Shown here: positions 5,061 to 45,279 of the stretch, in pieces | How the letters are laid out: each line of letters starts with the position of its first letter | Numbering within the stretch: position 1 is the first letter of the stretch | Virus record (IMG/VR): IMGVR_UViG_3300025607_000091 | Location: 1 to 50,144 of that record | Direction: 5' to 3' (one strand) | Length of the DNA stretch: 50,144 nt | Origin: a virus | Taxonomy: Duplodnaviria > Caudoviricetes | Position numbers and translations under genes: made by a program | Notes under the pieces: model-generated | What the model was told of the DNA's origin: nothing | Seen by the model: the letters and a program-made list of their open reading frames with translations, nothing else | Database searches by the model: none

Positions 5061-5081
5061 ACATATAAATAACTATATATA

Positions 5082-5636
5082 ATGAAATATCAATTAATAG
5101 TTTACGTTTTATCATTATTATTATTATTTTCATGCTCAAACAAAAATAGTTTGGATATAGAAAGTGTAATCGAAATGCACAATCAATATGATTACAATAA
5201 TTTGCAAAAACACTACACTAACGACTATAAAGAGTTATCAGGTAATTATATAGACATAGATGGGAAATTAGAGTTAAAAAACGCATTAGAATATTACGAG
5301 CTTCTTGAATACAGAACAAAATTAATCTCTATTAAAAGAATAGATGGTAAGATTGAAACAATTGAAGAAATAAATAATATACAAAACATTACTTTAGGAC
5401 TAGGTAAACAAAAGTTTAAAGTTATTTACAATATTAAGAACAACTTAATTACTTCAACAATAGTAGAGCATATTAAATCAAGTGATTCCACTAATAATTT
5501 AATAAAAACATTAGATTTTTTCGACTTTTGTTCTAAATATAATTATAAATTTAATGAGAAATCTGATAAGAAGTCAGGGGTAATTAAATTAAAAGCTTTA
5601 AAAATGTACTCTAATAAAGAATCGGAAGAGATATAG
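5082..5636 (+). CDS. Putative lipoprotein
   Basis: Signal peptide ending LLLFSC. Confidence 0.7.
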   Translation: MKYQLIVYVLSLLLLFSCSNKNSLDIESVIEMHNQYDYNNLQKHYTNDYKELSGNYIDIDGKLELKNALEYYELLEYRTKLISIKRIDGKIETIEEINNIQNITLGLGKQKFKVIYNIKNNLITSTIVEHIKSSDSTNNLIKTLDFFDFCSKYNYKFNEKSDKKSGVIKLKALKMYSNKESEEI

Positions 5637-5674
5637 GCGGGTATATTTTAAATAAAACTTATACTATTAAACAC

Positions 5675-5706
5675 AAAAAAGGCGCTAAGTTAATTAGCGC
5701 CTTTTT
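5675..5706. terminator. Bidirectional terminator between the accessory operon and the repressor
   Basis: AAAAAAGGCGCTAA-gttaa-TTAGCGCCTTTTT. Confidence 0.85.
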
Positions 5707-5752
5707 CTTTACTATATATTAAAGGTGTTGAATACGGCACCTTTCTATTCGA

Positions 5753-6139
5753 TTACTTATAATCTACTTTAATTCCCTGATCTTCCAAAAACTTAGTTAC
5801 AGCTTTGGTTTCAATATCCTGTATAATAAGGTCAAAATATCTGTATTTGCCTCTAAAGTATTCAATATTTTCAGACACTATATATATCCCTTCTTTTTCT
5901 GGAAATTTTATTTCATCGTCTGAAATAAAAAGATTTAAGTTAGATAGTTTGTCTTCCTTCATATTACTAGAGCTGTAATTTTCAAAAAACTTTACCAATA
6001 TTGGGATTTTAGTCCCCGGTATTTTCCCTCCATTCTCGTAATTATATATTGTGTTCTTACTCATTCCGAGTTTAGCACCAAGCTCTTCTTGTGACAAGTT
6101 GAGTTCTATTCTTTTTAATTTGATTTCTTTACCGTTCAT
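5753..6139 (-). CDS. XRE-family HTH repressor (CI-like)
   Basis: IKLKRIELNLSQEELGAKLGMSKNTIYNYENGGKIP; divergent from the early operon. Confidence 0.88.
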   Translation of the reverse strand: MNGKEIKLKRIELNLSQEELGAKLGMSKNTIYNYENGGKIPGTKIPILVKFFENYSSSNMKEDKLSNLNLFISDDEIKFPEKEGIYIVSENIEYFRGKYRYFDLIIQDIETKAVTKFLEDQGIKVDYK

Positions 6140-9594: not shown

Positions 9595-10032
9595 ATGAGT
9601 TTAGCTACCAATAACCGAAACAGAGCTTTTATAAACTTAATAGACAAGTTGCCTGCAAAAAGGCAATATGTATACAGTTTAATCAAAGAGAATGAACCTT
9701 GCACACTTGAATATTTGTGTAATAAATACGGATTAGAAAAAAACGTATCTGGAAGACTTACTGAATTAAAAAGCTCTTGTTTGATTATGGAATTTGGGAG
9801 CAAAATAAATGAAGTAACTAATAATCAAAACACGCTTTATAGAACTGTAGGAAATGATGAAAGAATCAACTTAATCAATTTAAACTATGGTGAGTTAATT
9901 GAAAAGAAAGACGCTTTGATTAATGATTACAATTTAGGAATGAGCAGTTTTTCACGTGAGCTTTTAGATAAGGAGTTGAAGAAAATCAAAAGCAAGATTA
10001 AGAACCTTGAAAACATTTTAGATGCAGCATAA
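9595..10032 (+). CDS. Winged-HTH DNA-binding protein
   Basis: PCTLEYLCNKYGLEKNVSGRLTELK. Confidence 0.55.
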   Translation: MSLATNNRNRAFINLIDKLPAKRQYVYSLIKENEPCTLEYLCNKYGLEKNVSGRLTELKSSCLIMEFGSKINEVTNNQNTLYRTVGNDERINLINLNYGELIEKKDALINDYNLGMSSFSRELLDKELKKIKSKIKNLENILDAA

Positions 10033-10708
10033 ACAAAAACCATGCGAGCCAAACAGTAAAGCTCCAGGAGCTGAAGGTTGTGGAAAGCCATCTTTTAAAA
10101 GAACTTATGGCTTGTGTGATTGTTGTTTAATGGAATGGGCCACAACAACTGAGAACGGTAAAATTTGGTATCAAAAAACATTTCTTCCAAGGGTTGCTAC
10201 GAAAGTAAAGTTAAACCAAAAGAAGAAAGAAAAAGCTCAAAAGGACCAGTTAACAGATTGGGGTAAAAAGCTTCAAGATAAGGTTAACGAAATAGTAAGG
10301 CTTATTGATATTGGATTACCGTGTTTGGCAAGAGGTTATCACGCGAATCAGATTCATGCAGGACATGTATTTGCAAGAGGAGGAAATCAAACGATCAGAT
10401 TCAATTTACACAATATACATCGTCAATCAGCTCAATCAAATACTTATCAAAATGATGATGGATTATTAAGAGAAGGATTAGTAAAAGAATACGGTCAAAA
10501 GTATTTTGAATTTATTAGCGAATTAAGGCAAACACCATCTTTAAGCTATTTAAACTTAGAATACCAAGATAAGTATCAATTAGCGAGTAAAATCGCTTTA
10601 AAGCTTAAAAAAGAAGGTAGGGTTTTCAATTTAAAAGAAAGAGTTGAAACAAGGAATAAAATAAACTTAGAGCTATCTATTTACGATTACAAGTATTGTG
10701 TAGCATAG
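10022..10708 (+). CDS. ninG: NinG/Rap-like recombination nuclease
   Basis: VRLIDIGLPC...HAGH...RFNLHNIHRQ. Confidence 0.7.
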   Translation: MQHKQKPCEPNSKAPGAEGCGKPSFKRTYGLCDCCLMEWATTTENGKIWYQKTFLPRVATKVKLNQKKKEKAQKDQLTDWGKKLQDKVNEIVRLIDIGLPCLARGYHANQIHAGHVFARGGNQTIRFNLHNIHRQSAQSNTYQNDDGLLREGLVKEYGQKYFEFISELRQTPSLSYLNLEYQDKYQLASKIALKLKKEGRVFNLKERVETRNKINLELSIYDYKYCVA

Positions 10709-14259: not shown

Positions 14260-14469
14260 TTAAACTAATTGCTGGAAAGTATATGTTTTTCCGTTCAGAG
14301 TATAATCAAAACAAGGTTCTTGCTTAAACTCTTTTAAAAACCAACGGTAAGAATGACAGGAAGGCTCTAAGTTCTTAAAAAGTTCGCAAAACATTTCAAG
14401 ATTAGTTTCAATAACCACAACTTTATTGTTGTGACAACAAGCAAATAATTTAGTAATCCGTTTATTCAT
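14260..14469 (-). CDS. Small protein divergent from the DGR operon
   Basis: Minus-strand TAAGTTTG -7 box at 14481-14474 directly upstream of the ATG. Confidence 0.55.
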   Translation of the reverse strand: MNKRITKLFACCHNNKVVVIETNLEMFCELFKNLEPSCHSYRWFLKEFKQEPCFDYTLNGKTYTFQQLV

Positions 14470-14588: not shown

Positions 14589-15071
14589 ATGAACACTCTA
14601 GAAATTAAAAAAGAAGATGCTTTAAAAGCGCACGAAAACGCATCAAGTAAAGGAAAAACATTGCTTGAAAATTTATTAGGTAAAAAAACTTTTCAGAAAA
14701 AAGTAACTGACCGTATTAAAACAATTAAAGATGTTTTAGAATACAATGGTATTTCTGAAGAAGAACGAAGTGAAAAATACATGCTGTTCTTTGATAATTT
14801 AAAGTTGCCACATTTATACTATCAATGGTTAGCAGAATTACTATGCAAATCATTAAATGAGGATTGGACTCCTGATTGGGATAATTCAAATGAGCGTAAA
14901 TACTTTCCTTGGTTTAAAATGTGTTCTGGTGGTTTCCGTTATGACGACTTCGCTTATTGGCTTACGGGTTCGAGTGTCGGCTCTCGCCTTTGCTTAAAAT
15001 CGGATGAATTAGCAAAGTATGCCGGAACCCAATTCACAGAAGTTTACGAACAATTTATGATAACTAAATAA
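14589..15071 (+). CDS. DGR target protein 1 (160 aa)
   Basis: Contains VR1; KYFPWF...VGSRLC motif shared with target 2. Confidence 0.9.
   Translation: MNTLEIKKEDALKAHENASSKGKTLLENLLGKKTFQKKVTDRIKTIKDVLEYNGISEEERSEKYMLFFDNLKLPHLYYQWLAELLCKSLNEDWTPDWDNSNERKYFPWFKMCSGGFRYDDFAYWLTGSSVGSRLCLKSDELAKYAGTQFTEVYEQFMITK
14923..14993 (+). repeat. DGR variable repeat VR1
   Basis: 71-bp copy of TR with 12 mismatches, all at TR adenines. Confidence 0.95.
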
Positions 15072-15082
15072 TACATATTACA

Positions 15083-15481
15083 ATGAAAAAATTTACAGAT
15101 TTAAAAACATTTGAACAAGCGTGTGAGTTATTAAATATTGACTCAAAAACAGTATTACCAGACTTTTCAAATTACCCTGAGCAGGGCAGATTAGCTATGA
15201 TAGCTCATGCTAAATTACCAATTATAGTAAGAGCTGCTAACAAGCTTGCAAACGATGGAGAGGAAGTTGTTTTTGATTTCAATGATTCTAGCCAATGTAA
15301 ATATGAACCTTGGTTTGATATGGAAGATTATTCAGACGGTTCTGGTGGTTTCCGTTTTAACGGCTACGATGGTTGGCTTGCGACTTCGCTTGTCGGCTCT
15401 CGCCTTTGCTACATTTCAAGAGAAGTGTGCGAATACACAGTGAATCAGTTTATAGAGGTGTACAAAGCTTATTTTAAATAA
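15083..15481 (+). CDS. DGR target protein 2 (132 aa), paralog of target 1
   Basis: Contains VR2; KYEPWF...VGSRLC. Confidence 0.9.
   Translation: MKKFTDLKTFEQACELLNIDSKTVLPDFSNYPEQGRLAMIAHAKLPIIVRAANKLANDGEEVVFDFNDSSQCKYEPWFDMEDYSDGSGGFRFNGYDGWLATSLVGSRLCYISREVCEYTVNQFIEVYKAYFK
15339..15409 (+). repeat. DGR variable repeat VR2
   Basis: 71-bp copy of TR with 13 mismatches, all at TR adenines. Confidence 0.95.
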
Positions 15482-15490
15482 TATAAATAT

Positions 15491-15687
15491 AGGTTGTGTG
15501 ATGTGTTGAGCGCAGTTCTGGTAGTTTCCGTTATAACGACTACGATAATTGGCATACGAATTCGAATGTCAGCTCTCACCTATGCAAAAAGAAAATAACA
15601 TCACAAACCTTGCACGCAATGCAAAAAATTACAAACCTAATCAAGGCGTTGGTACTACTATGGAAAGCGACTTATTAAAGCAAAGGA
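15491..15687 (+). ncRNA. Putative structured TR-containing RNA of the DGR (ends approximate)
   Basis: AGGTTgTGTGATGT (15491-15504) can pair with ACATCACAAACCT (15598-15610); TTGCA-cgcaa-TGCAA hairpin follows. Confidence 0.55.
15515..15585 (+). repeat. DGR template repeat (TR)
   Basis: Intergenic GTTCTGGTAGTTTCCGTTATAACGACTACGATAATTGGCATACGAATTCGAATGTCAGCTCTCACCTATGC; 18 adenines, rich in AAY codons, upstream of the RT. Confidence 0.95.
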
Positions 15688-16650
15688 ATGAAACGAATAG
15701 GTAATTTATATCAGAAAATAATCAGTATTGAAAACTTGCAATTAGCAGATGTTGTAGCTCAAAAAAATAAAAGCAAACAGTATGGTGTGCAATCACACAA
15801 CTCAAAAAGTGATGCTAATATTTGGGAGTTACACAAAATGCTCAGGGATAAAACATATGCAACATCAAAGTATGACGTATTTAAAGTATATGAACCAAAG
15901 GAGCGAGAAGTTTACAGATTGCCATATTTTCCTGATAGAATAACACATCATGCAATCATGAATGTGTTGGAACCAATATTCGTTGCAAATTTTACAGCGG
16001 ACACATACAGTTGCATTAAGGGTAGAGGAATACATAAAGTACTTAAAAATGTAAAAAAGGCTTTAAAAGATGAAATAAATACGGTCTACTGTTTGAAATT
16101 AGATATTAAAAAATTCTACCCGAACATTGACCATGAAATTTTAAAGCAATTATTGCGAAAGAAATTTAAGGATCAGGATTTGCTTTGGCTATTAGATGAA
16201 ATTATTGATAGTGCAAAAGGATTACCAATAGGTAATTATTTAAGTCAATATTTTGCGAATTTTTACTTGTCATATTTTGACCATTGGATCAAGTAGCAAA
16301 AAGCAGTTAAGTATTATTTCCGTTATGCTGATGACATTGTAATACTTCATAAGGACAAAGAATACTTACATAAGATACTTGCTGAAATAAGCTATTACCT
16401 AAACACTAATTTAAAGTTATCGGTAAAAGGTAACTATCAAGTATTTCCAGTAGCATCTAGAGGGATTGATTTTGTAGGATATAGAATTTACCACACGCAT
16501 GTATTATTAAGAAAACGAATCAAACAAAACTTTGCTAGAAAACTAAAAAAGAAGCCAAACTCTTCTTGTATCGCATCATATTTAGGATGGCTAAAACATT
16601 GTGACGCGTTGAACTTAACCAAAAAATTATTGCCAAATGAACAATTTTAA
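15688..16650 (+). pseudogene. DGR reverse transcriptase (320 codons) interrupted by in-frame TAG at 16294-16296
   Basis: PKER, DRITHHA, LKLDIKKFYP, GLPIGNYLSQ motifs; after the TAG the same frame reads QKAVKYYFRYADDIVIL...GIDFVGY...SYLGWLKH to TAA at 16650. Confidence 0.9.
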
Positions 16651-16933
16651 AGATTTTGGAATTAAAACAAAATCGATCTCATTTGTTGGAGAAAAAATAG
16701 CAGTAAATAGATTATTCAATATTCGAATTACTGTTCATGCTTTTAAAATTGAACCTTCAAAACAAAAAGAAGGAACAGAATGTTTAACACTTCAGATAGA
16801 AAAGGCTGGAGAAATGAGAGTAGTATTTACAGGATCCACTTTCTTAATGCAAATGATAAAACAAGTACCAAAAGACAAGTTTCCTTTTGAAACAACCATA
16901 AAAAGAGACAATGAATATTATGAATTTACATAA
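16637..16933 (+). CDS. 98-aa protein coupled to the RT; candidate DGR accessory factor
   Basis: Start overlaps the natural RT end; beta-rich pattern (VVFTGSTFL, FPFETTI). Confidence 0.6.
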   Translation: MNNFKDFGIKTKSISFVGEKIAVNRLFNIRITVHAFKIEPSKQKEGTECLTLQIEKAGEMRVVFTGSTFLMQMIKQVPKDKFPFETTIKRDNEYYEFT

Positions 16934-18807: not shown

Positions 18808-19863
18808 ATGATAAACTTATATCAAACAAACATCGAACAATTATCAATTCATCAAGTAGGGAATAAGAGCAAAGCAGAAGGATGTTTTGTTTCAGATAGC
18901 ACTACAGAGTTAAATGATGAAATAGCACCATTAGTAAAAGATTTCTTCTTTAGGCCATTTAGGGAAAAGGAAGAAGTATTTTTTAATTTCTCACACGAAG
19001 TTGATGTAGCGTACAATGAGGTTTTTAAAACTTCTGAATCAATTTTTAATAATCCAAACTGTTTTCATGAGAAGTCAAAAGATATAGTAGGTCTTCTGTA
19101 TAATGAATCAATGCACCCACACATTAAAGGAGGTGAAGTTTATGTTACTTATTTAGATAATGTAATTATCGACAATCAAAAAGTTAATGCAATCGGAATA
19201 TTTAAAAGTGAGCTTAAGCATGATTTCCTACAATTCGAAAACAAAGGAAAAAACATGGAGACAATTTTACAACAAGGAGTTAATCTTAAAAAATTAGACA
19301 AAGGTTGTATCATTTTTAATATCGAAAAAGAAAGTGGTTACAGAGTTTTAAGCGTTGATAGTAACAAGTACGATACTAAGTACTGGTTAAATAGTTTCCT
19401 TGGCCTAGATGCTGTGATTGATGATGCTTATCAAACTAAGAAATACCTTCAATTATGTCAAAACTTCGCAAAAGATGTTGTTTTTCCTGCGGAAGACAAA
19501 AAGGAAGAAGTTATGTTCATGAATCGTTCAATGGATTATTTCGCCAAAAACGATGAGTTTGAAGAAACGGAATATTTAAACGTCGTTGTAGAGAATCCAG
19601 ATCTTATTCCAGAATTCAAACACTATAAATCAGAGAATGAACAAAAATACAGTGTAGAGGACCTAACTCAGTTTCCTATTTCAAATACTGCCGTTACTAC
19701 TTCAAGGAAAAAGATTAAAAATGAAATAAAACTAGACACAAACATGTCTATAAAATTAGACTTTATTAATCCCGATTCTGCTGAGAAATTCCTTGAGAAA
19801 GGTTGGGACGAAGAAAAGCAAATGTATTACTACTTATGTTACTTCAACAAAGAGGAGAAGTAA
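18808..19863 (+). CDS. Nucleoid-associated protein (NdpA/YejK-like)
   Basis: LSIHQVGNK, HPHIKGGEVYV, IGIFKSE, KLDKGCIIFN, YWLNSFL, EKGWDEEKQMYYY. Confidence 0.75.
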   Translation: MINLYQTNIEQLSIHQVGNKSKAEGCFVSDSTTELNDEIAPLVKDFFFRPFREKEEVFFNFSHEVDVAYNEVFKTSESIFNNPNCFHEKSKDIVGLLYNESMHPHIKGGEVYVTYLDNVIIDNQKVNAIGIFKSELKHDFLQFENKGKNMETILQQGVNLKKLDKGCIIFNIEKESGYRVLSVDSNKYDTKYWLNSFLGLDAVIDDAYQTKKYLQLCQNFAKDVVFPAEDKKEEVMFMNRSMDYFAKNDEFEETEYLNVVVENPDLIPEFKHYKSENEQKYSVEDLTQFPISNTAVTTSRKKIKNEIKLDTNMSIKLDFINPDSAEKFLEKGWDEEKQMYYYLCYFNKEEK

Positions 19864-24096: not shown

Positions 24097-24279
24097 ATGA
24101 AAGTTATTTATAAAACAGGAAACACAGTATATCACATAACAGACGAAATGCAGGAGCCAAGATTGGTAACAGGAGTAGTTCAAAGACCTAACAATGTAAT
24201 AACATATTTAGTAGGTAGCAAGGATGGAGAAACCGAGTGTTATGAGATAGAACTATCAAACGAAAAAACAATATTCTAA
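24097..24279 (+). CDS. Small hypothetical protein
   Basis: Coupled to terS by TAATG. Confidence 0.55.
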   Translation: MKVIYKTGNTVYHITDEMQEPRLVTGVVQRPNNVITYLVGSKDGETECYEIELSNEKTIF

Positions 24280-24722
24280 TGGCTTACTCTCCAGAAGAAA
24301 AAGAAGAGATATTTAAAAAGATATTTAAAAGCATATCTGAAGGACAATCCCTACGTAAATCTTTAAAAGAAGAAGGTATGCCTAGTAGAAAAACTTTCTT
24401 TAAATGGCTAGAAGAAGATAATGAAAAAGGAAACCAATACGCGTGTGCGTGCGAGGAAAGAGAAGAATTGATTTTTGAAGATATTTTAAACATAGCTGAT
24501 GATAATGGGGCAGATACTCGTTTTACAGAGAATGGAATCATGACTGACCACGATAATATTCAAAGGTCAAAATTAAGAGTTGATGCTAGAAAATGGGCGT
24601 TATCAAAAATGAATCCAACGAAATATGGTAATAAGCTTGATTTATCTGTAGAAGATAACACATTATCCAAAGAAGAACGTGCTGCAAGACTGGAAGAATT
24701 GAAAAGTAAATTATTGAAATAA
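24279..24722 (+). CDS. terS: Terminase small subunit
   Basis: GQSLRK...MPSRKTFFKWL HTH; RSKLRVDARKWALSKMNPTKYG. Confidence 0.85.
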   Translation: MAYSPEEKEEIFKKIFKSISEGQSLRKSLKEEGMPSRKTFFKWLEEDNEKGNQYACACEEREELIFEDILNIADDNGADTRFTENGIMTDHDNIQRSKLRVDARKWALSKMNPTKYGNKLDLSVEDNTLSKEERAARLEELKSKLLK

Positions 24723-26218: not shown

Positions 26219-26620
26219 GTGAAGAAACAATTAAGGGAAATAGTTTTTAACAAATGTAATGAACATTGTGCGTACTGTGGTGAAGAGCTTGAGTATAAAA
26301 ATATGCAAGTAGATCACATTATCCCTCAAAGAAACTTCTTGATTGATATTACTAGCGAATCAAGAACTCCTGGCTTCTTAAAACATCTAACCGCAAAGGA
26401 TTTAAATCATATTGACAACCTTAATCCTTCATGTAGAATATGCAATAAAAGAAAAGATACCTTTCATTTAGAATTGTTTAGAAAAGAGATTGCGTCACAA
26501 GTAGAAAGAGCAATTAAATCTAGTTCTAATTACAGGATAGCCAAACGATATGGATTAATAAAAGAAACCCCAAAACCAATTGTATTCTACTTTGAGACTT
26601 TAAAAACAATAAAACAATAA
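26219..26620 (+). CDS. HNH endonuclease
   Basis: HCAYCG...MQVDHIIP...NLNPSCRICNKRK. Confidence 0.85.
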   Translation: MKKQLREIVFNKCNEHCAYCGEELEYKNMQVDHIIPQRNFLIDITSESRTPGFLKHLTAKDLNHIDNLNPSCRICNKRKDTFHLELFRKEIASQVERAIKSSSNYRIAKRYGLIKETPKPIVFYFETLKTIKQ

Positions 26621-27077: not shown

Positions 27078-28523
27078 TTGAGCCTAACCGACTCCGAAAT
27101 ACTAGAATTAGAACAACTCTTACATGAGCAGAAAATCGACCTTTTAAATGAAGGTCTTTCTTCGTTTGGTAAAATGACTAATCCTAATTACAAGTTTATT
27201 CACGATGCAATTACCTTACAAGAGTATGACCGTTTCAATAAACTTACAAAAGGTTATGCTGGATCAATTTTAGAAGGTTCTTCTCGTTCAGGTAAAACAT
27301 GGAGTGGAATTGATATAATTATTTGGCTTTGTACAGTTGTAGAAACTAATTGTACAATAAATATTTATAGAGAAACATACAATGAGTTTAAAACAACGCT
27401 CTATGATGATTTCAAAAGGCGTCTTGATGATTTCGGACTACCAAACAAGTTTCACAACGCTGAAGATGTAAAAAGCTTTAAGATTGTAGATAATAAGATA
27501 TTCTTTCTAGGATGTGATAAAGTAGGTAAAGCTCATGGGGGTGGGTGTGACTATGCTTTCTTTAATGAAATGATGCACATCCCTAGAGAGATATTTGACC
27601 AAGTAGAAATGCGTTGTCGTAAATTCTGGTGGGGTGATTACAATCCAAGTTATACAGATCATTGGGTTTTCAACAATGTTATTCCTCGAAAAGAAATAGG
27701 TTTTTTAAGGACCACATTCTTAGACAATCCATTTATTTCAATAAAAGAGAAAAACAAAATACTTTCTTACGATCCATGGTTACCTGGAAGTTATGAAGTG
27801 CGTGAAGATGACGTATTTTATAATGATGAACCAGTTACCGATAAAAACCAACCACCACCACATCCAACGAATATTGAACAAGGAACCGCCGATATATTCA
27901 TGTGGAAAGTATACGGTTTAGGTTTACGCGGAGCTATGAAAGGAGTTATTTTCAATCATTTAACATGGATTGAAGAATTCCCAGATGTTGCGCATACTTA
28001 CGCGAATGATTTTGGTTTTACTGCAGATCCTAACGCATTAGTAAAATACGCCGAAGACGAAAAGAATATCTGGTTTGAATTACTTTCCTATGAGCCAATT
28101 GAAACTGATAGTGAGCTTTCAGAGTTCTTTGAAGCTGTAGGAGTAGAGAAGGACCTACCAATCATTTGCGATAGTTCTGATAAGTATACCGGTGAAAACA
28201 AAGGTACCATCGAAATGGTTAAAGGGCTTAAAAGAAGAGGTTGGAAAGCAAAGAAGGTGAGTAAAACTAAATCCATCATGTATTGGATCCTTTCCATGAA
28301 AAAGAAAAAGATTCATTGTGTTAAAAGCTCACATTGGAAACATGTTAAAAAAGAACGCGAGAATTACAAGTTCAAAGAAGTTAGTGGAATATTAATCAAT
28401 CAACCAATTGATAAATATAATCACTGTTTTGATGCGGTCCGTTATGGCCACATTTCCCACAACACCAAAACAACAATTTCAAGAACAACTAAATCAGTAT
28501 CACAATTAGGAATTAATTATTAA
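27078..28523 (+). CDS. terL: Terminase large subunit
   Basis: Walker A EGSSRSGKT, Walker B AFFNE, DYNP, nuclease DFGF..DP and NHCFDAVRY. Confidence 0.92.
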   Translation: MSLTDSEILELEQLLHEQKIDLLNEGLSSFGKMTNPNYKFIHDAITLQEYDRFNKLTKGYAGSILEGSSRSGKTWSGIDIIIWLCTVVETNCTINIYRETYNEFKTTLYDDFKRRLDDFGLPNKFHNAEDVKSFKIVDNKIFFLGCDKVGKAHGGGCDYAFFNEMMHIPREIFDQVEMRCRKFWWGDYNPSYTDHWVFNNVIPRKEIGFLRTTFLDNPFISIKEKNKILSYDPWLPGSYEVREDDVFYNDEPVTDKNQPPPHPTNIEQGTADIFMWKVYGLGLRGAMKGVIFNHLTWIEEFPDVAHTYANDFGFTADPNALVKYAEDEKNIWFELLSYEPIETDSELSEFFEAVGVEKDLPIICDSSDKYTGENKGTIEMVKGLKRRGWKAKKVSKTKSIMYWILSMKKKKIHCVKSSHWKHVKKERENYKFKEVSGILINQPIDKYNHCFDAVRYGHISHNTKTTISRTTKSVSQLGINY

Positions 28524-28597: not shown

Positions 28598-30013
28598 ATG
28601 GAAGAATTACTTAAATTATTAGAATCAGATGTTGCCGGAGCATTAAAAGTCCTTACTGCTCAGCAAAAAAACAAAGGAAATATTACCGATCGGAGAGAAG
28701 AATTCAATGAAATCGCTAGGGATTCAAGAGAAACTCAGATAGATAAAATACAGCTAGATAAAAATGTAGGAGAGGGAGAAAAAGCAAAAATCGTAAAAGC
28801 GGTTAAAATACCAGTGCCATTTCAAAACAAAATTGTAAACACCGCAACTGCATTTGAGGTAGGCGCCCCTGTTACATTAATCCCCAACAATACAGATAAT
28901 CTAGAACTTTCAGATGAAATATCAAGGCTTTGGGAGGTAAACAGAGTTGATTCGGTGTTACAAGAAGCTATTAAATTGCAAAAAAGTGAATTACAAAGCG
29001 CTATAGTATTTCACATTAAGGATTTAAGCAAAAGCTCTCTGTATAATCGGGTTATGGGAGTTAACCAAAATAAAGACATTAAAGCAAAGTTATTAAAGAA
29101 TGAAAACGGCGTGATGTCTCCTTATTTTGACGCATTCGGCGACATGAAGTCTTTTACATGGGAATACTCCACAACGAACAGTGAAGGAACAGAGGTAAAG
29201 AACATTTTAATTTACACAGATAAGCTACTTTATACATGCTCAGATGAATCAGGAAAGTTAATTTTCGTCAGAAAAGACGCTCATGGATTTGATAAAATAC
29301 CAGTCGTTTATTTATCTCAAGAAAAACCCGAATGGTTTATTGCAGAAAAAATGATTGATAGACTTGAAGTCTCAATGTCAAAACTAGGAGCTGCAAATGA
29401 TTATTCTGGACAACCTATTTTAGTTCTTTATGGATCGGTTCAAGGCGCACCAGATAAAGATGAAGATGGTAAAGCAATTATTTGTGATATTCAAATAGAC
29501 CCAGAAACAGAAAAAGAGGTGCGATCAGATGTTAAGTTTTTAACTCATGATAATGCGCCTGCATCTGTAAAATTGGAATTAGATCGTTTAGAAAAATACA
29601 TTTATTCTTTAACATCAACTCCTGATTTGTCATTTGACAACCTAAAAGGATTAGGAACTGTTTCGGGAGTAGCTTTACAATTAATGTTTCTTGATGCAAT
29701 ATTAAAAGCAAAAATGAATGAAGGGCAAAACAGAACAGTGGTCCAAAGAGTTCTTAATGTTTTTATTTCTGGAACAGTTACAACAACTGTTACTAAATTA
29801 AAGAGCCATGCCAAAGCAACTTATTTTAAGGTGAAGTTTAATAGCATTATACCAAACGACCTTAAAACCTCAGTAGAAACATTTTCAAAAGCTATTGAAT
29901 CGGGTATGATTAGTAAGAAAACATCTATTGATAATCTTGGTATTTCTACTAATTCAGAAGATGAAATAAAGCAAATTGAATTAGAGAAAGAAACATCGAA
30001 TAAAGATTTGTAA
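28598..30013 (+). CDS. Portal protein (SPP1 gp6-like)
   Basis: Follows terL; HGFDKIPVVY, TPDLSFDNLKGLG..SGVAL. Confidence 0.85.
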   Translation: MEELLKLLESDVAGALKVLTAQQKNKGNITDRREEFNEIARDSRETQIDKIQLDKNVGEGEKAKIVKAVKIPVPFQNKIVNTATAFEVGAPVTLIPNNTDNLELSDEISRLWEVNRVDSVLQEAIKLQKSELQSAIVFHIKDLSKSSLYNRVMGVNQNKDIKAKLLKNENGVMSPYFDAFGDMKSFTWEYSTTNSEGTEVKNILIYTDKLLYTCSDESGKLIFVRKDAHGFDKIPVVYLSQEKPEWFIAEKMIDRLEVSMSKLGAANDYSGQPILVLYGSVQGAPDKDEDGKAIICDIQIDPETEKEVRSDVKFLTHDNAPASVKLELDRLEKYIYSLTSTPDLSFDNLKGLGTVSGVALQLMFLDAILKAKMNEGQNRTVVQRVLNVFISGTVTTTVTKLKSHAKATYFKVKFNSIIPNDLKTSVETFSKAIESGMISKKTSIDNLGISTNSEDEIKQIELEKETSNKDL

Positions 30014-30345: not shown

Positions 30346-30375
30346 ATGCAACAAATTTAGAAATACAATTTTACT

Positions 30376-30415
30376 ATTTAGAATGATTCTAAATAAGAAA
30401 TAATTTATATATTTG
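30376..30415 (+). promoter_or_regulatory. 19-bp palindrome plus -7 box upstream of the head operon
   Basis: ATTTAGAATGATTCTAAAT (30376-30394); TATATTTG (30408-30415). Confidence 0.7.
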
Positions 30416-31118: not shown

Positions 31119-31135
31119 TTTTTTTTGCCTAAAAT

Positions 31136-31160
31136 ATTATTTAGAATCGTTCTAAATAAT
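31136..31160. promoter_or_regulatory. Second copy of the palindrome
   Basis: ATTATTTAGAA-tcg-TTCTAAATAAT with 11-bp perfect arms. Confidence 0.7.
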
Positions 31161-31184
31161 TAAACGTTAAAAACAAAAAACAAC

Positions 31185-31548: not shown

Positions 31549-32829
31549 ATGGCGACTACAATTTCAAATTTCAAAGATTTAATTAAAAAATTCTTCACCG
31601 GAGTAGCGAAGAAGGAATACGATAAGATAAACGGTTCAAAAGATGAACCAAAATATCTTCACGATCAAATGTTAACACCAGAGTATTCAGTCGACATGAC
31701 TTACTCTTCAATAAGCGGAAACTTTACAAGAGTAACTGCAGATGTTGTTTCTTTTGATTCTCCTGTACCATTAAAGTCTAGAGGCTCAATTAAATCTGCA
31801 ACTGGAGATATTCCAAAAATTGGTATTGGATACACCTTGAATGAAAAACAAATGAATACACTTCGTATTCTAAGAAACATGAAAGGAAGAGCAACGGAGC
31901 TTGCTAAAAAAGTGTTTAAAGATACGAACGCTTGTATTTTCGGAATCAAGGAAACGATAGAAGAAGCACATTTAATTGGCTTTTCTTCTGGTGTAACTAT
32001 TATCCCAGACACTACTAATGTAGGTACAGGAATTAGAATTAATTACAATATTCCAGAAAGTAATCAATTTGGAGGTGTTGCTAAATGGGATAGTACTGAT
32101 GCAAAGCCAATCGACGATATTAAAAGAGTATTGAGTGAGGCTAAAGACAAAGGTGAATACCCTGATACTATTTGGATGGATAGTTATGGTGTTGATCGAT
32201 TAGCAACTAATCAGCAAGTAAAAGAAATGTATGCTTTCGGTTTAAACTTTACTGGATCAAACATTCCTTCTCCTGATGAAGAACAATTAACCAGGTTCTT
32301 AAAGAAAAGATTAAAGTTAAATCTAAGGGTAATTGACAGAAGTTTTATTCATGAAAAAGACGGAAAAAGAACTGTTTCTCAAGGATGGACACCAAACATG
32401 GTTGTATTTACTACTGGTGAAAAAGTTGGTTCTTTGGTTTATAGTACTCTTGCAGAAGTTGAATTTCCACAAGAAGGAGTTGCTTATGCAAAGCCTAATG
32501 AGTACATCTTAATTAGTAAATCAGGTACAACGAACCCAGTAAGTGAAAACACAACTGGTCAAGCTCTTGCTATTCCTGTTTTACAGAATGTAGATTCAAT
32601 TTTCTATTTAGATACTAACGAAGCTCAAGAAGTTGATTCTGGAGAAACTGAAGGTGATTTAAATATTACTATTTGGGAAACTTTATTAGTTAAAGCAACA
32701 GTAATCGCGAAACTTAACGAAATGGAAATCAACACAACATCTACAATTACTGATGCTGGATTGATTACTAAGATCAATAAGTTAAATGATGAAGATGAAG
32801 CAACATTAAAAGGTTTATTAGGACTGTAA
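31549..32829 (+). CDS. Major capsid protein
   Basis: Size and position; ADVVSFDSP, GDIPKIG, KPIDDI, ALAIPV motifs reminiscent of lambda gpE-type capsids. Confidence 0.8.
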   Translation: MATTISNFKDLIKKFFTGVAKKEYDKINGSKDEPKYLHDQMLTPEYSVDMTYSSISGNFTRVTADVVSFDSPVPLKSRGSIKSATGDIPKIGIGYTLNEKQMNTLRILRNMKGRATELAKKVFKDTNACIFGIKETIEEAHLIGFSSGVTIIPDTTNVGTGIRINYNIPESNQFGGVAKWDSTDAKPIDDIKRVLSEAKDKGEYPDTIWMDSYGVDRLATNQQVKEMYAFGLNFTGSNIPSPDEEQLTRFLKKRLKLNLRVIDRSFIHEKDGKRTVSQGWTPNMVVFTTGEKVGSLVYSTLAEVEFPQEGVAYAKPNEYILISKSGTTNPVSENTTGQALAIPVLQNVDSIFYLDTNEAQEVDSGETEGDLNITIWETLLVKATVIAKLNEMEINTTSTITDAGLITKINKLNDEDEATLKGLLGL

Positions 32830-35371: not shown

Positions 35372-35958
35372 ACAACAACCAATTTTTATACAATTCAGTT
35401 GATACGATACCAGCTAAACTATATTATAAAATAGTTTCAAGCGGTGATTTGACCTTGTTATCAAGTGAAAAACTAGAAGAAAAAGAGCTTATTGAGATTT
35501 GGGAAACCATACAAAATGAAGACGCGGAACTTTCTCCAGGAGGTAAAGCCGATAAGATTATAAATGTTTCACGTAAAATTGAAGCAATAGCAGCTAAATA
35601 TGATGCCGTTAATCTAGCGGTTTACTACTTAGAACGCAATGAAGATGAAGAACTGATCAATCAGTTGAAAAAATACAATTATAAGTTTTCAGGTGACTTG
35701 CAAGAGGATTTAAAAACCATTGCAAGAGAAAATAAAGCGTTGATATTAATAATCAAACGCTATCAAAAACAATTACCACAACAAGACGAAGAAAACACAA
35801 GCAAATCAACGCTTGACGATAACATACTTCAATACGCAGTTATAACCGGATTAGGGTTTATTGACCCAAACACAATAGTATTATCAACATACCGGTCTTT
35901 AATAAATGTCGGAAACCAAAAAATAAAAGCTTTAGAAGATGGCCAACAACAAGGGTAA
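35368..35958 (+). CDS. Putative tail assembly chaperone
   Basis: Immediately upstream of the tape measure gene. Confidence 0.45.
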   Translation: MNNNQFLYNSVDTIPAKLYYKIVSSGDLTLLSSEKLEEKELIEIWETIQNEDAELSPGGKADKIINVSRKIEAIAAKYDAVNLAVYYLERNEDEELINQLKKYNYKFSGDLQEDLKTIARENKALILIIKRYQKQLPQQDEENTSKSTLDDNILQYAVITGLGFIDPNTIVLSTYRSLINVGNQKIKALEDGQQQG

Positions 35959-38900
35959 AGTAACATTTGAAAAATCCATTGAAAAAAAGGTTTTTGACAT
36001 TGGTCCTAAGTATGCAAAATCACTTGAACCGGCTTTAAAAGCAAACAAGGAATGGTTAGCTTCAATGGAAGCTTTGAAGAAATCAGCACTTGGATATGCC
36101 AAACTTGAAAAGCAATTTAAGGCAGCGAAAGGAAGAAAGGAATTCTTAGCAGCTCTTAAAGAAGAAGAAGTTGTAAGAAAAAATGCTGTAAACGCCGTAA
36201 AAGATGAAGAAAAAGCAAGGGTTGACGCTGAAAGAGTAAAGCAAGCTGAATTAGTTACTGCTAAAAGAAGACTTGAGCTATCAAAAAAAGAAATAGAGTT
36301 AGCTGATAAGGTGGCAACTCAAAAAAAGAAAAATACAAAGCTTACAGTTGAAGAAAAGCTAGCAAATCAACAAGTTAATAAAACTAAAAGAGAAGATGCG
36401 GTATTAACAAGTAAACTAACCGGAGCATACCAAAAACTTAACCTTAAGCGCACCCAAGCAAAAACAACACTTCAAAACTTAATTGCTAGTGAGGAAGCTT
36501 CTACAAAAGAAATTGAGAAGGCTCAAAAAGCATTTAATAAATTAGACGCTAAAGTTAATAAAGCTGATTTAGCGGTTAGGGACTTTGGGAAAAACGTAGG
36601 AAACTATCCTAGACAACTTGGAAGAGGTATCGCTAGTATAAAAAACTTAATGGGTGCATTTGGCGCGGTTGGTGGAATCATGCTATTCGCTAAAATCATG
36701 AAAGAATCTTTTGCAATAACAAGAGATTTTGAAAAACAAATGGCAACTACAGCTGGTGTTTTGGGGAAAACTAGGAAAGAAATAAAACCCTTAACAGATG
36801 ATGCAAAACGACTTGGAGCAACAACGGAGTTCACAGCAAAACAAGTTGGAACACTTCAAGAAGCTTACGCGCGTTTAGGGTTTACACAAGAACAAATACT
36901 TGACACAACCGAAGCAACACTAAAAGGAGCAACCGCTTTACAGTCTGACCTAGGAGAAACGGCAGACCTTGTAGGATCAACACTTAATCAATTTGGTTTG
37001 GATGCTAAAGAGTCGGGTAGGATTGTCGATGTTCTTTCAAAATCAACTCAAATAAGTGCCTTAAATTTCAAGAAATTACAAACAGCACTTCCAATAGTTG
37101 GGAAAGTTGCTAAACTAGCTGGTGTTAGTTTTGAAGAAACCGCTTCAATGCTTGGGGTATTGTCTTCTAACGGTATTGACGCTTCAACTTCAGCTTCAGC
37201 ACTAAGAAACATATTCCTTGATTTAGCCGCTAACGGTCTTACTTTAGAAGAAGCGCTGGGTCAGATAAACAACTCTACAGACAAACTAAATACAGCAAAT
37301 GAATTATTCGGGAAAAGAGGGGCTACAGTAGCAGTAACTTTAGCAGAAAACACAGACTTAGCAGCTAAATTTAGCGATCAATTAAACAACGCTGGTGGTT
37401 CAGCCGAGAAACTTGCAAAAGAACAACTTGATACCTTAGATGGTAGTATTAAATTATTAAGTTCAGCCTGGGAAGGTTTTATTTTATCCGTTGACAATGG
37501 AAGCGGAGTTTTTGGGAGTATCACAAGGGGAATTATCGATTTTGGAACAGCGATTTTAACAGCTTTTACACCTTCAATAGATAAAGCCACAGAATTAAGC
37601 AACTCTTTCTTTAAACAACAAAAGAGTGTTGAAAGTTTAGATAAAAGCATTTCACCGCTACTTACAAGATATGACGAGTTAACTAAAAAAACAAAAGGAA
37701 ACACAACCGAAACCAAACTATCTAAAAAAGAGCAAATTGAGCTTGACGGAATTATTTTAAAAGTTGCGGAAGACATTCCTTCAGCGGTTACTGCTTTTGA
37801 TGAATACGGTAAAGCATTAGGAATTAACACGACAGCGGCAAAGAATTTTATAAAACAACAGAAGCAAATACTTGCGATTAAGAACGCGGAAGCAATTGAA
37901 GAACAAGTAAAAGCAATTAAAGGTCTTAATACAGAAATCACAACCACTACCAATACTTTAAACGGAGTATCGGGAGGGTATCGAGAAGTAGTAAAACAAA
38001 ACGGTAAGTTTTATAAACAAGTTATAAAAGGAGGGAAAGTTACTAGAACTGAATTAGAGGAAATAGAAGGCGGTGTTGAGAGGTTTGCTGGTAAATTAGA
38101 AGAGCTTCAAAACGAAAAACTAGGTAGGGAAGGAATACTTGCGCAGTTAAGAGGAAATAAAACAAAAGAACAAATAGCCGCAGAAGCTGAAGAAGCGATA
38201 CTTAATGCAAAAAACTTAGCCGGAGCAACTGACGATTTAGTTGATTCAGAAAGCAAACTAAACGCTGAAAGACGAAAAGCATTAGCAGAAGCAAATCACA
38301 CTTTAAAAATCGCTCAATTACAAGAAGAAATTGATAAGTATAAAGAAGTTGCAGAAGATGAAGAGAACTTATATTCATTACGTTATCGCGCGTTAGTATC
38401 GTTAAACGAATCGAAAAAGCAACTGATTGAAGAGCAGTACAAATACGATGCTGAAAATATTGATAAAACAATAAAAGATGAAGAAATAGCAAAAGCTAAA
38501 AAGAAAGTTCTTGAAATAAATTACAATAGTGACATAAATAAGATAAAAGGCGAAAACACCCAATTAGCGGAGAAATTGCTTAAAGATAATTTTGAAGCAG
38601 TTAAACGAAATCTTGAGGGAAAGAAAAAAGCTCAAAACGAAGCTTTAGCAGCAGAAATAGAAAGTTTACAAGGGCAATTACAACGAAAAGAAATTTCAGT
38701 CGAACAGTACGAAGAAAAAGTACTTGAGCTTAAAAAGAAAAAAGCAAGAGAAGGTTTAGAAGTTGCAATATCAACGCTTGAAACTGAGATAAACACACGT
38801 TTACTAGCCGGAGAAGATGTAGCAGCGTTAGAAGAGCAGTTATCAGCAACAAGGCGCGAATTATCTAATAATGATACTGAAGTAATCATTGAGGATTTAG

Positions 38901-39883
38901 AAAAGCAAAAAGAAGCAGAAGAAAAGCTTGCAGCTGCAAAAGCAAAAATCATAAAGGATGGGTCAAAAGGTTTAGCAGAAGCACTAGGTATAGACGCAGC
39001 GCACTTGGAAGATTTTATTACTGGTGTAGTAAGTGGGTTTGGTGAAGAGATAGACCCCACAATGACTGAGTTTCAGCAGAGCATGCAAAAAACACACAAC
39101 GCTTTCGCTGCGCTAGGTTCGGTTGCGTCAGTTGTTGGAGATATAGTAAGCGCTGTTTTTGAAGGAAACATTCAGAACTTAGAAAATGAACTTGATGCAA
39201 ACGAGGAATATTACGCAAGAAAACAAGAGCTTGCCGGTGATGATCAACGAAAAAAAGACTTACTTAAAAAAGAAGAACAGCGAAAATCCGACATTTTAAA
39301 AAGGAAAATTGCTAAAGAGAAAACCAAAGCGGCTAAAGCAGAAAAAGCAGCTGCATTAGTTCAAGCCGGAATCAATACAGCATTAGCAATTACTTCAGCG
39401 TTAACAATGGCACCGCCAGCCGCATACGTTATGGCCGCTTTAAGTGCTGCAATGGGTATTGCTCAAATCGCTGCAATTGCTTCAAAGCCAATTCCAAAAT
39501 ATGCAAAAGGTACTGATTATCACCCAGGAGGACACGCACTTGTTGGGGAAGAACGCGCCGAGGTTATTAGCGAGCCGGGAAAAGCTCCTTATATCGTAGA
39601 TGGTCCGCAAGTTTTAGACTTGGCAGAAGGAACAAAAGTAACTCCAAGTTTAGGAGAATACGAAAAATTAATGCGCGCTTCAATCATGGCTAGTTTGGAT
39701 ATAGACAACCAAAAAGCGAAAAAATACAATTCAGAAGCAACAACCTTTGATCAAAATTTGTTATTGATGGAAATGAAATTGACACGTGAAGCGATTGAAA
39801 GACAGCAAACTAATATAAATATTGAAGGTCCGAAAATAGACTTAGAATATTTGGCTCACCGTAACGAACAACTAAACGGCTAA
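35939..39883 (+). CDS. Tail tape measure protein (TP901-like core)
   Basis: 1314 aa; AKRLGATTEFTAKQV, GIDASTSASALRNI, LFGKRG, QLDTLDGSIKLLSSAWEG, PKYAKGT. Confidence 0.92.
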   Translation: MANNKGKVTFEKSIEKKVFDIGPKYAKSLEPALKANKEWLASMEALKKSALGYAKLEKQFKAAKGRKEFLAALKEEEVVRKNAVNAVKDEEKARVDAERVKQAELVTAKRRLELSKKEIELADKVATQKKKNTKLTVEEKLANQQVNKTKREDAVLTSKLTGAYQKLNLKRTQAKTTLQNLIASEEASTKEIEKAQKAFNKLDAKVNKADLAVRDFGKNVGNYPRQLGRGIASIKNLMGAFGAVGGIMLFAKIMKESFAITRDFEKQMATTAGVLGKTRKEIKPLTDDAKRLGATTEFTAKQVGTLQEAYARLGFTQEQILDTTEATLKGATALQSDLGETADLVGSTLNQFGLDAKESGRIVDVLSKSTQISALNFKKLQTALPIVGKVAKLAGVSFEETASMLGVLSSNGIDASTSASALRNIFLDLAANGLTLEEALGQINNSTDKLNTANELFGKRGATVAVTLAENTDLAAKFSDQLNNAGGSAEKLAKEQLDTLDGSIKLLSSAWEGFILSVDNGSGVFGSITRGIIDFGTAILTAFTPSIDKATELSNSFFKQQKSVESLDKSISPLLTRYDELTKKTKGNTTETKLSKKEQIELDGIILKVAEDIPSAVTAFDEYGKALGINTTAAKNFIKQQKQILAIKNAEAIEEQVKAIKGLNTEITTTTNTLNGVSGGYREVVKQNGKFYKQVIKGGKVTRTELEEIEGGVERFAGKLEELQNEKLGREGILAQLRGNKTKEQIAAEAEEAILNAKNLAGATDDLVDSESKLNAERRKALAEANHTLKIAQLQEEIDKYKEVAEDEENLYSLRYRALVSLNESKKQLIEEQYKYDAENIDKTIKDEEIAKAKKKVLEINYNSDINKIKGENTQLAEKLLKDNFEAVKRNLEGKKKAQNEALAAEIESLQGQLQRKEISVEQYEEKVLELKKKKAREGLEVAISTLETEINTRLLAGEDVAALEEQLSATRRELSNNDTEVIIEDLEKQKEAEEKLAAAKAKIIKDGSKGLAEALGIDAAHLEDFITGVVSGFGEEIDPTMTEFQQSMQKTHNAFAALGSVASVVGDIVSAVFEGNIQNLENELDANEEYYARKQELAGDDQRKKDLLKKEEQRKSDILKRKIAKEKTKAAKAEKAAALVQAGINTALAITSALTMAPPAAYVMAALSAAMGIAQIAAIASKPIPKYAKGTDYHPGGHALVGEERAEVISEPGKAPYIVDGPQVLDLAEGTKVTPSLGEYEKLMRASIMASLDIDNQKAKKYNSEATTFDQNLLLMEMKLTREAIERQQTNINIEGPKIDLEYLAHRNEQLNG

Positions 39884-42145: not shown

Positions 42146-42175
42146 TTTAGCTTTATATTGTTTAAACAGCTGAAA

Positions 42176-42970
42176 ATGATAGGAATATATAAAATAATAA
42201 ACCCTAAAAACAAAGTTTACATAGGTCAAAGTGTAGAGATAGAAAAAAGGTTTTCTGCTTATAAAAGACTAAAATGTAAAGGCCAAAGGATATTGTATAG
42301 GTCGTTAAAAAAATACGGTGCTGAAAACCATAAATTTATTCTAATACACGAATGTAATGTATCAGAATTAAATGAATTAGAAAGGCATTATCAAGAAGAG
42401 TACAATGCAATTGGTTCTAACGGAATGAATTGCAGGTTGACAAAAACAAGTGATAAAAGCGGTTATTGTTCTGAAGAAACTAGAATGAAAATAAAAATGG
42501 CTAGTGTAGGAACCAGGGTAGGAAGAAAACACACTCAAGAAACCAAAAATAAAATTGGGTTAGCTAATGTTGGGAATAATCACGGGCTAGGCAAAAAAAT
42601 GAGTGTAGACACAAAATTGAAATTAAAAGAGATCAATACCGGAAATAAATACGGTTTAGGAAGGGTCGCAACAGAAAAACAAAAGAACGACCACTCTGTT
42701 TATATGCAAGGAAATAAACATTGTGTAAATAGGATTATTTCAGAGGACACAAGAAATAAAATATCGAAAGCAACAAAAGGGAAGAAAAGAACAGCTGAAA
42801 CCAAGAAAAGATTGTCATTAGCAAAAATGAAAGTGATATTAAACACGCAAACCGGGGTGTTTTTTTTAGGAGTAAAAGAAGCAAGTGAAGCATATAATAT
42901 TAAAATATACACTCTTACTAGCAAATTAAATGGCAAGAGTAAAAACGACACAAATTTAATTTACGTTTAA
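42176..42970 (+). CDS. GIY-YIG homing endonuclease with NUMOD3-like repeats
   Basis: MIGIYKIINPKNKVYIGQS; repeated SEETRMKI, TQETKNKI, SEDTRNKIS, TAETKKRLS. Confidence 0.88.
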   Translation: MIGIYKIINPKNKVYIGQSVEIEKRFSAYKRLKCKGQRILYRSLKKYGAENHKFILIHECNVSELNELERHYQEEYNAIGSNGMNCRLTKTSDKSGYCSEETRMKIKMASVGTRVGRKHTQETKNKIGLANVGNNHGLGKKMSVDTKLKLKEINTGNKYGLGRVATEKQKNDHSVYMQGNKHCVNRIISEDTRNKISKATKGKKRTAETKKRLSLAKMKVILNTQTGVFFLGVKEASEAYNIKIYTLTSKLNGKSKNDTNLIYV

Positions 42971-45204: not shown

Positions 45205-45238
45205 ATAATACAAAGATAATCTTTATATCAATTCTATT

Positions 45239-45279
45239 ATTTAGAACGATTCTAAATAAGAATAGTTTTCATATATTTG
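45239..45279 (+). promoter_or_regulatory. Third palindrome copy plus -7 box upstream of the fibre/lysis operon
   Basis: ATTTAGAACGATTCTAAAT (45239-45257); TATATTTG (45272-45279). Confidence 0.7.

Follow-up and report, generated by a model that had tools for sequence, protein, structure and literature searches.

What does a retroelement that rewrites proteins accomplish when the proteins it rewrites are small and are encoded far from the tail genes? Diversity-generating retroelements (DGRs) are defined by adenine-specific variation between a template repeat (TR) and a variable repeat (VR), together with an adjacent reverse transcriptase (RT). In the Bordetella phage BPP-1 prototype the cassette (mtd-avd-TR-brt) diversifies a tail fibre protein, and present understanding comes almost entirely from tail-fibre targets and the Avd-dependent BPP-1 machine. 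To our knowledge, DGRs are the only known natural system of targeted protein hypermutation in prokaryotes and their viruses, and a C-type lectin scaffold is thought to be near-universal among their targets. The locus discussed here occupies positions 14589-16933 of the IMG/VR virus record IMGVR_UViG_3300025607_000091, a 50,144-nt stretch that is the whole assembly for that sequence and that we refer to as the window. An earlier note on this DNA had proposed that it encodes a DGR acting on two small non-tail proteins. We conclude that the cassette belongs to a self-contained, mobile type of DGR that is frequent among the phages and prophages of Bacteroidota. The full account that we favour, and that we consider reasonably probable taken as a whole, adds to this a mechanism, a pairing of the two targets as a heterodimer, a non-virion role for them and the freezing of the copy found here. 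The parts of the cassette are as follows.

14589-15071, + strand: target 1, the 'long' paralogue, 160 aa (phrog_11581, E 3.2e-21)
14923-14993, + strand: VR1, codons 112-135 of the 160-codon target 1; the 15 nt at its end, 14979-14993, form the putative initiation of mutagenic homing (IMH) site
15083-15481, + strand: target 2, the 'short' paralogue, 132 aa, lacking about the first 35 residues of target 1 (phrog_11581, E 9.2e-13)
15339-15409, + strand: VR2, codons 86-109 of the 132-codon target 2; the 15 nt at its end, 15395-15409, form the putative IMH
15515-15585, + strand: TR, non-coding, 71 nt with 18 adenines, in the gap between target 2 and the RT
15688-16650, + strand: DGR-type RT, 320 codons, interrupted at codon 203
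16294-16296, + strand: in-frame TAG, codon 203 of the RT, upstream of the YADD motif
16637-16933, + strand: basic open reading frame (ORF) of 98 aa, isoelectric point (pI) 9.3, overlapping the end of the RT; candidate beta-barrel resembling the oligonucleotide/oligosaccharide-binding (OB) fold

The identity of the element follows from its repeats. The TR differs from VR1 at 12 and from VR2 at 13 of 71 positions, and every mismatch (12/12 and 13/13) falls on one of the 18 TR adenines, figures that came out exactly as the earlier note had given them when we recomputed them; the non-adenine positions of the TR are identical in both VRs (53/53). The hypergeometric chance of every mismatch falling on the 18 adenines is 1.5e-9 for VR1 and 1.5e-10 for VR2. 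The TR codons are of the usual DGR design, four of them being AAY and none being mutable to a stop, and with four fixed positions set aside each target could take about 2e8 peptide forms. Scanning the 50,144-nt record on both strands, with up to 12 mismatches tolerated at the 53 non-adenine positions, found no further TR or VR copy; since the scan yields the TR, VR1 and VR2 only, the targets number exactly two and none of the tail genes carries a VR. The RT, whose start codon lies 102 nt past the TR, matches phrog_1423 (E 1.3e-122) and RVT_1 (E 3.8e-19). Its best relative of solved structure is 8ub7_A (328 aa, E 1.9e-41), probably the BPP-1 enzyme, its database label being just 'Reverse transcriptase'; the next class (retron and group II RTs) follows at 4.2e-14. 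The pattern shows that two tandem paralogous genes receive, in their 3' portions, copies of a TR that is itself non-coding, and that the copying errors are confined to adenines. With 25/25 mismatches at TR adenines, none at any other base and a DGR-class RT adjoining, the cassette is a genuine DGR aimed at two small tandem targets with no tail target, and the earlier DGR call stands.

A site that would direct homing can also be proposed. Three of the adenine mismatches, at TR positions 15571, 15578 and 15582, carry the identical change in both VRs and are fixed differences in relatives too, so that these sites resemble the distinction between an IMH and its TR counterpart, IMH*, rather than fresh mutagenesis. 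VR1 and VR2 end in the same GC-rich 15 nt, whose conservation in relatives includes synonymous sites, a Leu codon being CTT in 51/52 VRs; positions 15571-15585 of the TR form the putative IMH*. We regard the VR end and the TR end as a putative IMH/IMH* pair. A conserved DNA hairpin or cruciform after the VR, like that of BPP-1, was considered and rejected: stems are possible at both VRs, with z-scores of only -0.96 and -0.29, and the 3' arm is not kept in relatives (an Ala codon is GCA in 28/52 and the next codon varies).

Relatives of the cassette show how widely this arrangement is distributed. A profile of the targets gave at least 420 confirmed relatives in IMG/VR, of which the best 80 loci were analysed, and with one genome per species 87 Bacteroidota stretches encode relatives, of which 77 loci were kept (individual loci are cited below by L and a number). 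In 69/80 of the IMG/VR loci one to three tandem target copies are followed by an RT at a distance of at most about 1 kb, and 66 of these 69 RT-bearing loci have TR-VR pairs with mismatches overwhelmingly at adenines; an RT is present at 49/77 of the genome loci. The genome relatives span the Flavobacteriales, Sphingobacteriales, Cytophagales, Chitinophagales and Bacteroidales. Their usual layout is a pair of a long (about 155-160 aa) and a short (about 120-135 aa) target, with two copies in 44/77 genome loci. The genes that flank the window's cassette have almost no counterparts in the loci of relatives, so the cassette moves as a module.

Near-identical phages point to diversification at work. 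All 24 of the differences between L028 and L030 over 10,314 nt lie in the three VRs, as do 16/16 between L040 and L042 over 6,611 nt and 18/22 between L021 and L024 over 3,950 nt, and by this concentration of change the DGR clade is active in nature. Some loci weigh against so simple a picture: L001 and L002 are identical, a counter-example to VR-concentrated differences, and L062, L065 and L068 differ at 42-205 flank positions and at none in the VRs, a pattern that may reflect an inactive cassette or strong selection. Additional VRs with adenine-only mismatches were noticed outside the tandem pair, at L003:5360-5436 (downstream of the 98-aa ORF) and, 4-5 kb upstream, at L026:2595-2663 and L071:1471-1539.

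The family also reaches phages in which its members lie far from the RT. By tblastn, hypothetical proteins of LoVEphage, BI-TP1 and phage Versailles are homologous to the targets, aligning from end to end at 26-27% identity (E 2e-6). Those of LoVEphage and Versailles contain true remote VRs, with 19/19 and 15/16 mismatches at TR adenines; the distance to the RT is 14 and 44 kb, and the neighbouring genes encode methyltransferase, NinB and replisome proteins. Target-family genes with no RT within 4 kb were observed at L082, L085, L086 and L117 and, among Bacteroidales, at L129, L141 and L149-L155; these could be either remote targets of the LoVEphage kind or relatives that are not diversified. 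Four tandem copies stand at L082:4001-5680, and the Bacteroidales versions are longer, at about 185 aa.

If the cassette travels as a unit, which of its parts besides the repeats and the RT are conserved with it? Two RNA elements surround the TR.

15493-15504, + strand: 5' arm of a long-range helix closing the TR (RNAalifold, 53 loci; also present in the single-sequence minimum-free-energy fold)
15598-15608, + strand: 3' arm of the TR-closing helix (RNAalifold, 53 loci)
15606-15687, + strand: structured spacer resembling Rfam RT-17 (RF03020), reaching up to the RT start codon

The TR-closing helix has 11 pairs in an RNAalifold alignment of 53 non-identical TR regions, and both-side changes occur in up to 34/53 sequences at one pair; this covariation shows the TR to be held as a loop by a conserved long-range helix. 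Hairpins of the spacer covary in the same type of alignment. Against RT-17 (RF03020) the window's spacer scores 24.5 bits, under the gathering score of 40.4, yet it spans the full model (1-95), and the gathering score is reached at the same position in 5/14 related loci (41.5-57 bits). The RT-17 stretches in relatives are at L021:3319-3410, L009:6990-7074, L077:7007-7087, L056:4632-4715 and L045:6595-6671. The motifs RT-1 to RT-19 were reported as found near RT genes (Weinberg et al., 2017, PMC5737381), and the RT-17 motif is likely a DGR spacer RNA, as that paper guesses for RT motifs generally.

The third conserved part is the 98-aa ORF. By tblastn it follows the RT in 47/69 IMG/VR loci and in 41/49 genome loci, and divergent copies align in some loci that tblastn missed. 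Homologues stand directly 3' of the RT in the archaeal virus ANMV-1 (E 5e-5; L158:3986-4282, annotated only as hypothetical) and in the Methanosarcinales virus vir525 (E 7e-11; L165:2989-3276); since the targets there are tail-module proteins, the 98-aa ORF goes with the RT and not with the target. In a neighbouring ESM Atlas cluster 44% of members belong to the phi29 single-stranded DNA-binding protein (SSB) family, and an OB-fold single-strand-binding family profile (e.g., PF17427) was among those considered; 40 members of the ORF's family gave no Pfam match at E < 0.01, the phi29 SSB family included. No Avd-type Pfam family was found among the 68 window ORFs at E <= 0.01. We infer that the 98-aa protein may be the nucleic-acid-binding partner of Avd-less RTs.

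What, then, are the proteins that this machinery rewrites? As the earlier note had described, they are tandem paralogues of 160 and 132 aa (34-37% identical) in which the VR is followed by about 25 further residues, 25 in target 1 and 23 in target 2. Neither has a hydrophobic segment, the maximal 19-residue Kyte-Doolittle means being 0.37 and 1.02, a measure that stands here in place of a dedicated signal-peptide predictor. Target 1 has 264 homologues at E <= 0.001, and 51 short paralogues were aligned. The sole family match of both targets is phrog_11581, whose function is not annotated; searches of Pfam and NCBIfam gave no match, the ESM Atlas gave unnamed viral clusters only, and among cultured phages there was no match at E <= 1e-5 and six weak ones at E <= 1. 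Nitrile hydratase alpha, suggested by a weak row of the profile-versus-PDB search (E 1.4e-4, no passing stretch), was taken as spurious. A search for longer or fused forms found a single 309-aa protein and no fusion to a tail domain, which is weak evidence.

The AlphaFold2 (AF2) model of target 1 is confident (pLDDT 90.6, pTM 0.79). Its residues 8-90 are helical, the long beta-hairpin that comes next (104-112 and 115-124) leads into a loop at which the confidence dips, and two helices make up the C-terminus; the model places the variable residues 118-123, 125-127 and 129 on the second hairpin strand and the loop. Fold searches with this model found no match to any solved fold, the C-type lectin fold included, and the minimal lectin fold for which the earlier note had suggested looking was not recovered by these searches. 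The heterodimer that it had also suggested fared better. Predicted with our own alignments, the complex of target 1 and target 2 reaches an interface score (ipSAE) of 0.65 in three runs, the best of 3 controls giving 0.00; the ipSAE mark applied is reached by 58/80 solved complexes and by 2/110 mismatched pairs. Between runs, 92% or more of the contacts recur, with a partner pLDDT of at least 81. We accordingly present the long and short paralogues as a predicted heterodimer. Several points weigh against that prediction: 4/10 variable positions of target 1 and 6/10 of target 2 fall in the modelled interface, which is odd for a ligand site, and the complex model may simply pack sticky variable loops together, or the paralogues may pass as close cousins of a true homodimer partner.

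Whether the cassette still works in this prophage depends on the codon at 16294-16296. This TAG is the sole in-frame stop in 15688-16647 and falls between the conserved LSQ segment and YADD; because it precedes the catalytic YADD the cassette is most likely frozen. The aligned residue is Glu in every relative that covers the codon (68/68 from IMG/VR and 46/46 from genomes, 114/114 together), so the TAG looks like a single-base nonsense change, one base separating it from the Glu codon GAG, and not like a conserved recoding site. The truncated 202-aa RT, both targets and the 98-aa ORF each occur as one sequence on 8 contigs, so the TAG is reproducible, and each is the sole member of its own 90% identity cluster, with no VR variants known. 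The working element that the earlier note had implied is not supported, given the nonsense codon and targets that do not vary across the 8 contigs, and we think it quite likely that the cassette here is a recently inactivated, frozen copy whose VRs record past activity. Two considerations temper this: contigs are consensus sequences and the 8 are possibly non-independent, so that low-level VR variation or a TAG confined to a minority or to an assembly state is possible. The DGR would be active in this phage if its RT were still made, either because a suppressor tRNA of the host or programmed leakiness lets translation pass the TAG or because the TAG is an artefact of assembly or sequencing. 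Such an RT would need only one base to be restored to GAG, it would suit the intact state of both VRs with their 15-nt ends and of both open targets, and low RT dosage might be tolerated; in Quimbyvirus an RT split over three frames is still associated with adenine-specific variation (PMC8008677). We nevertheless consider it unlikely, given the invariance across 8 contigs and the Glu conservation just described. Reassignment of TAG was rejected, since TAG terminates 13/63 + strand ORFs of the window as an ordinary stop, its reading as sense joins only the RT halves and fuses no other gene pair, and the 50,144-nt record contains no tRNA gene. In L084, an uncultured Flavobacterium metagenome-assembled genome, the RT (about 5073-6032) has an in-frame stop at a different position, so RT decay recurs in the clade.

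For the role of the targets, gene position supplies most of what can be said. The cassette lies between NinG-type early genes and the terminase, with the tape measure and the distal virion proteins 21-28 kb downstream. In relatives we surveyed 148 ORFs, the two nearest on either side of the cassette at 37 loci (out of 39 loci with 156 ORFs, less L010 and L037). By PHROG category, 24 of them belong to DNA/RNA metabolism (RecT, exonuclease, SSB, primase, helicase, NinB, HNH, Mu Gam), 8 to 'other' (5 of them DNA methyltransferases), 3 to integrase, 3 to moron, 2 to packaging (both in L009) and 1 to connector, 38 match families of unknown function and 69 have no match; none of the 148 matches a tail or a lysis PHROG. 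The non-tail, early-region placement noted before thus holds across the clade, and our leading, though tentative, reading is that the targets are non-virion intracellular binding proteins for phage-host conflict or host takeover. The cytoplasmic or anti-defence role that the note had put forward is a reasonable inference from gene position and the lack of a hydrophobic segment only, and both would fit a virion protein as well, virion proteins having no signal peptides either. As the main rival, the targets might instead be virion parts, receptor-binding adaptors like Mtd that dock on the tail by their helical N-terminal part and switch host range as in BPP-1, with genes that simply lie outside the tail module; we regard this as doubtful. 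Most of the phage DGR targets known so far are structural, and the same is presumed of those that lack annotation (Roux et al., preprint 10.1101/2020.04.01.020958); the L009 cassette sits between large terminase and portal genes; and the depositors of Versailles annotated its homologue as a 'tail protein'. That label, however, is an HHpred-to-PHROG transfer and not an experiment, LoVEphage and Versailles keep a separate VR copy by the TR while the family member is remote among methyltransferase and replication genes, and neither the flanking ORFs nor the search for fused forms yielded a tail domain. The targets could also serve the lysogen: expressed from the prophage, such a diversified sensor or blocker would recognise the proteins of phages that superinfect, for exclusion or defence. 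A 440-nt gap with a divergent ORF upstream means that the cassette could be its own transcription unit, it adjoins an integrase in L039, L041 and L045 and a Ren-like exclusion protein in L011, and bacterial DGRs are reported to be linked to defence (PMC12629997). Domain searches found no effector domain in either 132-160-aa protein, most neighbours are same-strand lytic-cycle replication and recombination genes, and we judge this function improbable.

The mechanism we propose can be stated by analogy with BPP-1 for its three nucleic-acid steps. The cassette comprises, in order, the long target, the short target, the TR RNA, the RT and the small OB-fold-like protein. The RT-17-type spacer would prime or position reverse transcription, the basic 98-aa protein would replace the missing Avd as the nucleic-acid-binding partner of the RT, and the GC-rich 15-nt IMH, three fixed adenines apart from IMH*, would direct one-way homing. 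Diversification rewrites about 10 residues per target, on the second hairpin strand and the following loop, with about 2e8 variants each. A GAG-to-TAG-type nonsense codon before YADD has most likely frozen the cassette here.

The rest of the window supplies the setting. At 32% G+C, the 50,144-nt record reads as a temperate siphovirus-like prophage, with the following genes assigned by profile match.

1-1209: integrase
5753-6139, - strand: helix-turn-helix (HTH) repressor
10022-10708: NinG
24279-24722: small terminase
27078-28523: large terminase
28598-30013: portal
31549-32829: major capsid
35939-39883: tape measure
39887-42145 and 42984-45005: two large distal virion proteins

The sole minus-strand ORF of the region around the cassette is a 69-aa ORF at 14260-14469 inside the 440-nt gap upstream of target 1, for which profile searches of the window ORFs gave no family match; with this small divergent ORF, the gap could carry the cassette's own promoter. 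A homologue of NA37, the 37-kDa nucleoid-associated protein (351 aa, 18808-19863, E 1e-46), lies 2 kb downstream of the cassette. An HNH endonuclease gene (26219-26620) stands just upstream of the large terminase, and a GIY-YIG/NUMOD3 homing-endonuclease-like gene (42158-42970) forms an insertion that separates the genes of the two large virion proteins. Late-gene gaps contain three copies of a 34-nt repeat (family D3) with a palindrome inside it, at 30366-30399, 31129-31162 and 45229-45262; these repeats may be terminators or regulatory sites.

Why such a cassette would matter is best judged against what has been described. A cassette devoted only to this target family, with a tandem long/short pair and an RT-linked 98-aa ORF, was not found described in the literature as far as its accessible text goes, nor was the target family in Flavobacteriia. 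At its fullest, the proposal is of a phylum-wide mobile DGR module whose sole clients are a heterodimer of small non-virion, non-lectin proteins, served by an Avd-less RT, by an OB-fold accessory shared with archaeal-virus DGRs and by a closed-loop RT-17 RNA; we hold this combination, in all its parts, to be a long shot worth stating. If true, phages would encode what is in effect an 'antibody' pair that works inside the cell on variable targets in host defence or takeover. Short of that, the cassette offers a clean genetic handle on second, non-structural DGR targets, being compact (2.4 kb) and found in culturable Flavobacteriia and Bacteroides phages, together with a target scaffold that no fold search ties to C-type lectins. 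It also offers two proposed machine parts. One is an RT-linked OB-fold-like protein conserved between phages of Bacteroidota and viruses of archaea, and the other is a TR-closing helix adjoining RT-17, until now an orphan Rfam motif. Small, soluble and possibly dimeric scaffolds that tolerate about 1e8 variants would be of interest for DGR-based protein engineering. The probable death of the window's copy lowers its own value and not that of the family.

Compared with BPP-1, the cassette shares the adenine-specific transfer from TR to VR, an RT homologous to 8ub7_A and a GC-rich VR end unlike the TR end. It departs from BPP-1 in most other respects. The BPP-1 target is a 381-aa protein of the tail-fibre tip, whereas the window's targets are two proteins of 132-160 aa outside the tail module; 23-25 residues follow the VR with no conserved post-VR hairpin, and the TR is closed by a long-range helix. 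In place of Avd, absent among the 68 window ORFs, an OB-fold-like ORF of 98 aa follows the RT. The window's spacer matches RT-17 and not RT-10, the motif reported at this place in BPP-1 (Weinberg et al., 2017, PMC5737381).

The lack of avd has precedents. According to Wu et al. (2018, PMC5758913), 75/372 DGRs have no known accessories and one RT lineage is without avd, and the target-TR-RT order found here fits their Architecture A1. The 98-aa ORF falls outside their classes avd, HRDC, MSL and CH1 as given there (CH1 being 160-169 aa and acidic, pI 4.7, against 98 aa and pI 9.3 here), although their lists of PAG1-4 and sandwiched genes may already contain it. The nearest parallel for this ORF is in ANMV-1 (Paul et al., 2015, PMC4372165) and vir525, in which the RT is directly followed by a 98-aa homologue (36% identity) with the same adjacency or overlap. 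Their targets are large tail-module proteins (adtA; 'tail protein'), unlike those of the window, and the ANMV-1 figure legend puts the Avd label on another small ORF between target and RT and leaves the downstream ORF unmentioned.

For the targets, there is a likeness to the 'target 2' proteins of tentaclin-encoding gut phages (Baykov et al., 2023, PMC10743442), which are small, stand-alone and helix-flanked, carry the VR on a beta-hairpin and belong to two-target cassettes, as in the window. They are lectin-like there, whereas the window's targets match neither Pfam nor a lectin fold, and their partner target is a large tail-like protein in place of the second member of a small pair (PMC10743442). 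Targets away from structural genes have been reported elsewhere: those of the Quimbyvirus DGR are described as 'nested within defense-related genes' by Benler et al. (2021, PMC8008677), and a 2025 study (PMC12629997) gives a distal VR in four further phage species. With LoVEphage and the Quimbyvirus type the window shares a similar GC-rich VR end and a placement among methyltransferase, recombination and replication genes. The two types differ in organisation, because LoVEphage-type phages use the family member as a second target, at a distance of 14-44 kb from the cassette, whereas in the window it is the only kind of target, in tandem and directly upstream of the TR. The VR measures 71 nt in the window and 112-113 nt in those phages, the proteins there are longer, at about 193 aa compared with 132-160 aa, and the 98-aa ORF was not detected in LoVEphage-type phage records at E <= 0.001. 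By their full-length alignment, the window's targets are distantly homologous to the remote DGR targets that LoVEphage and Versailles encode outside their structural genes.

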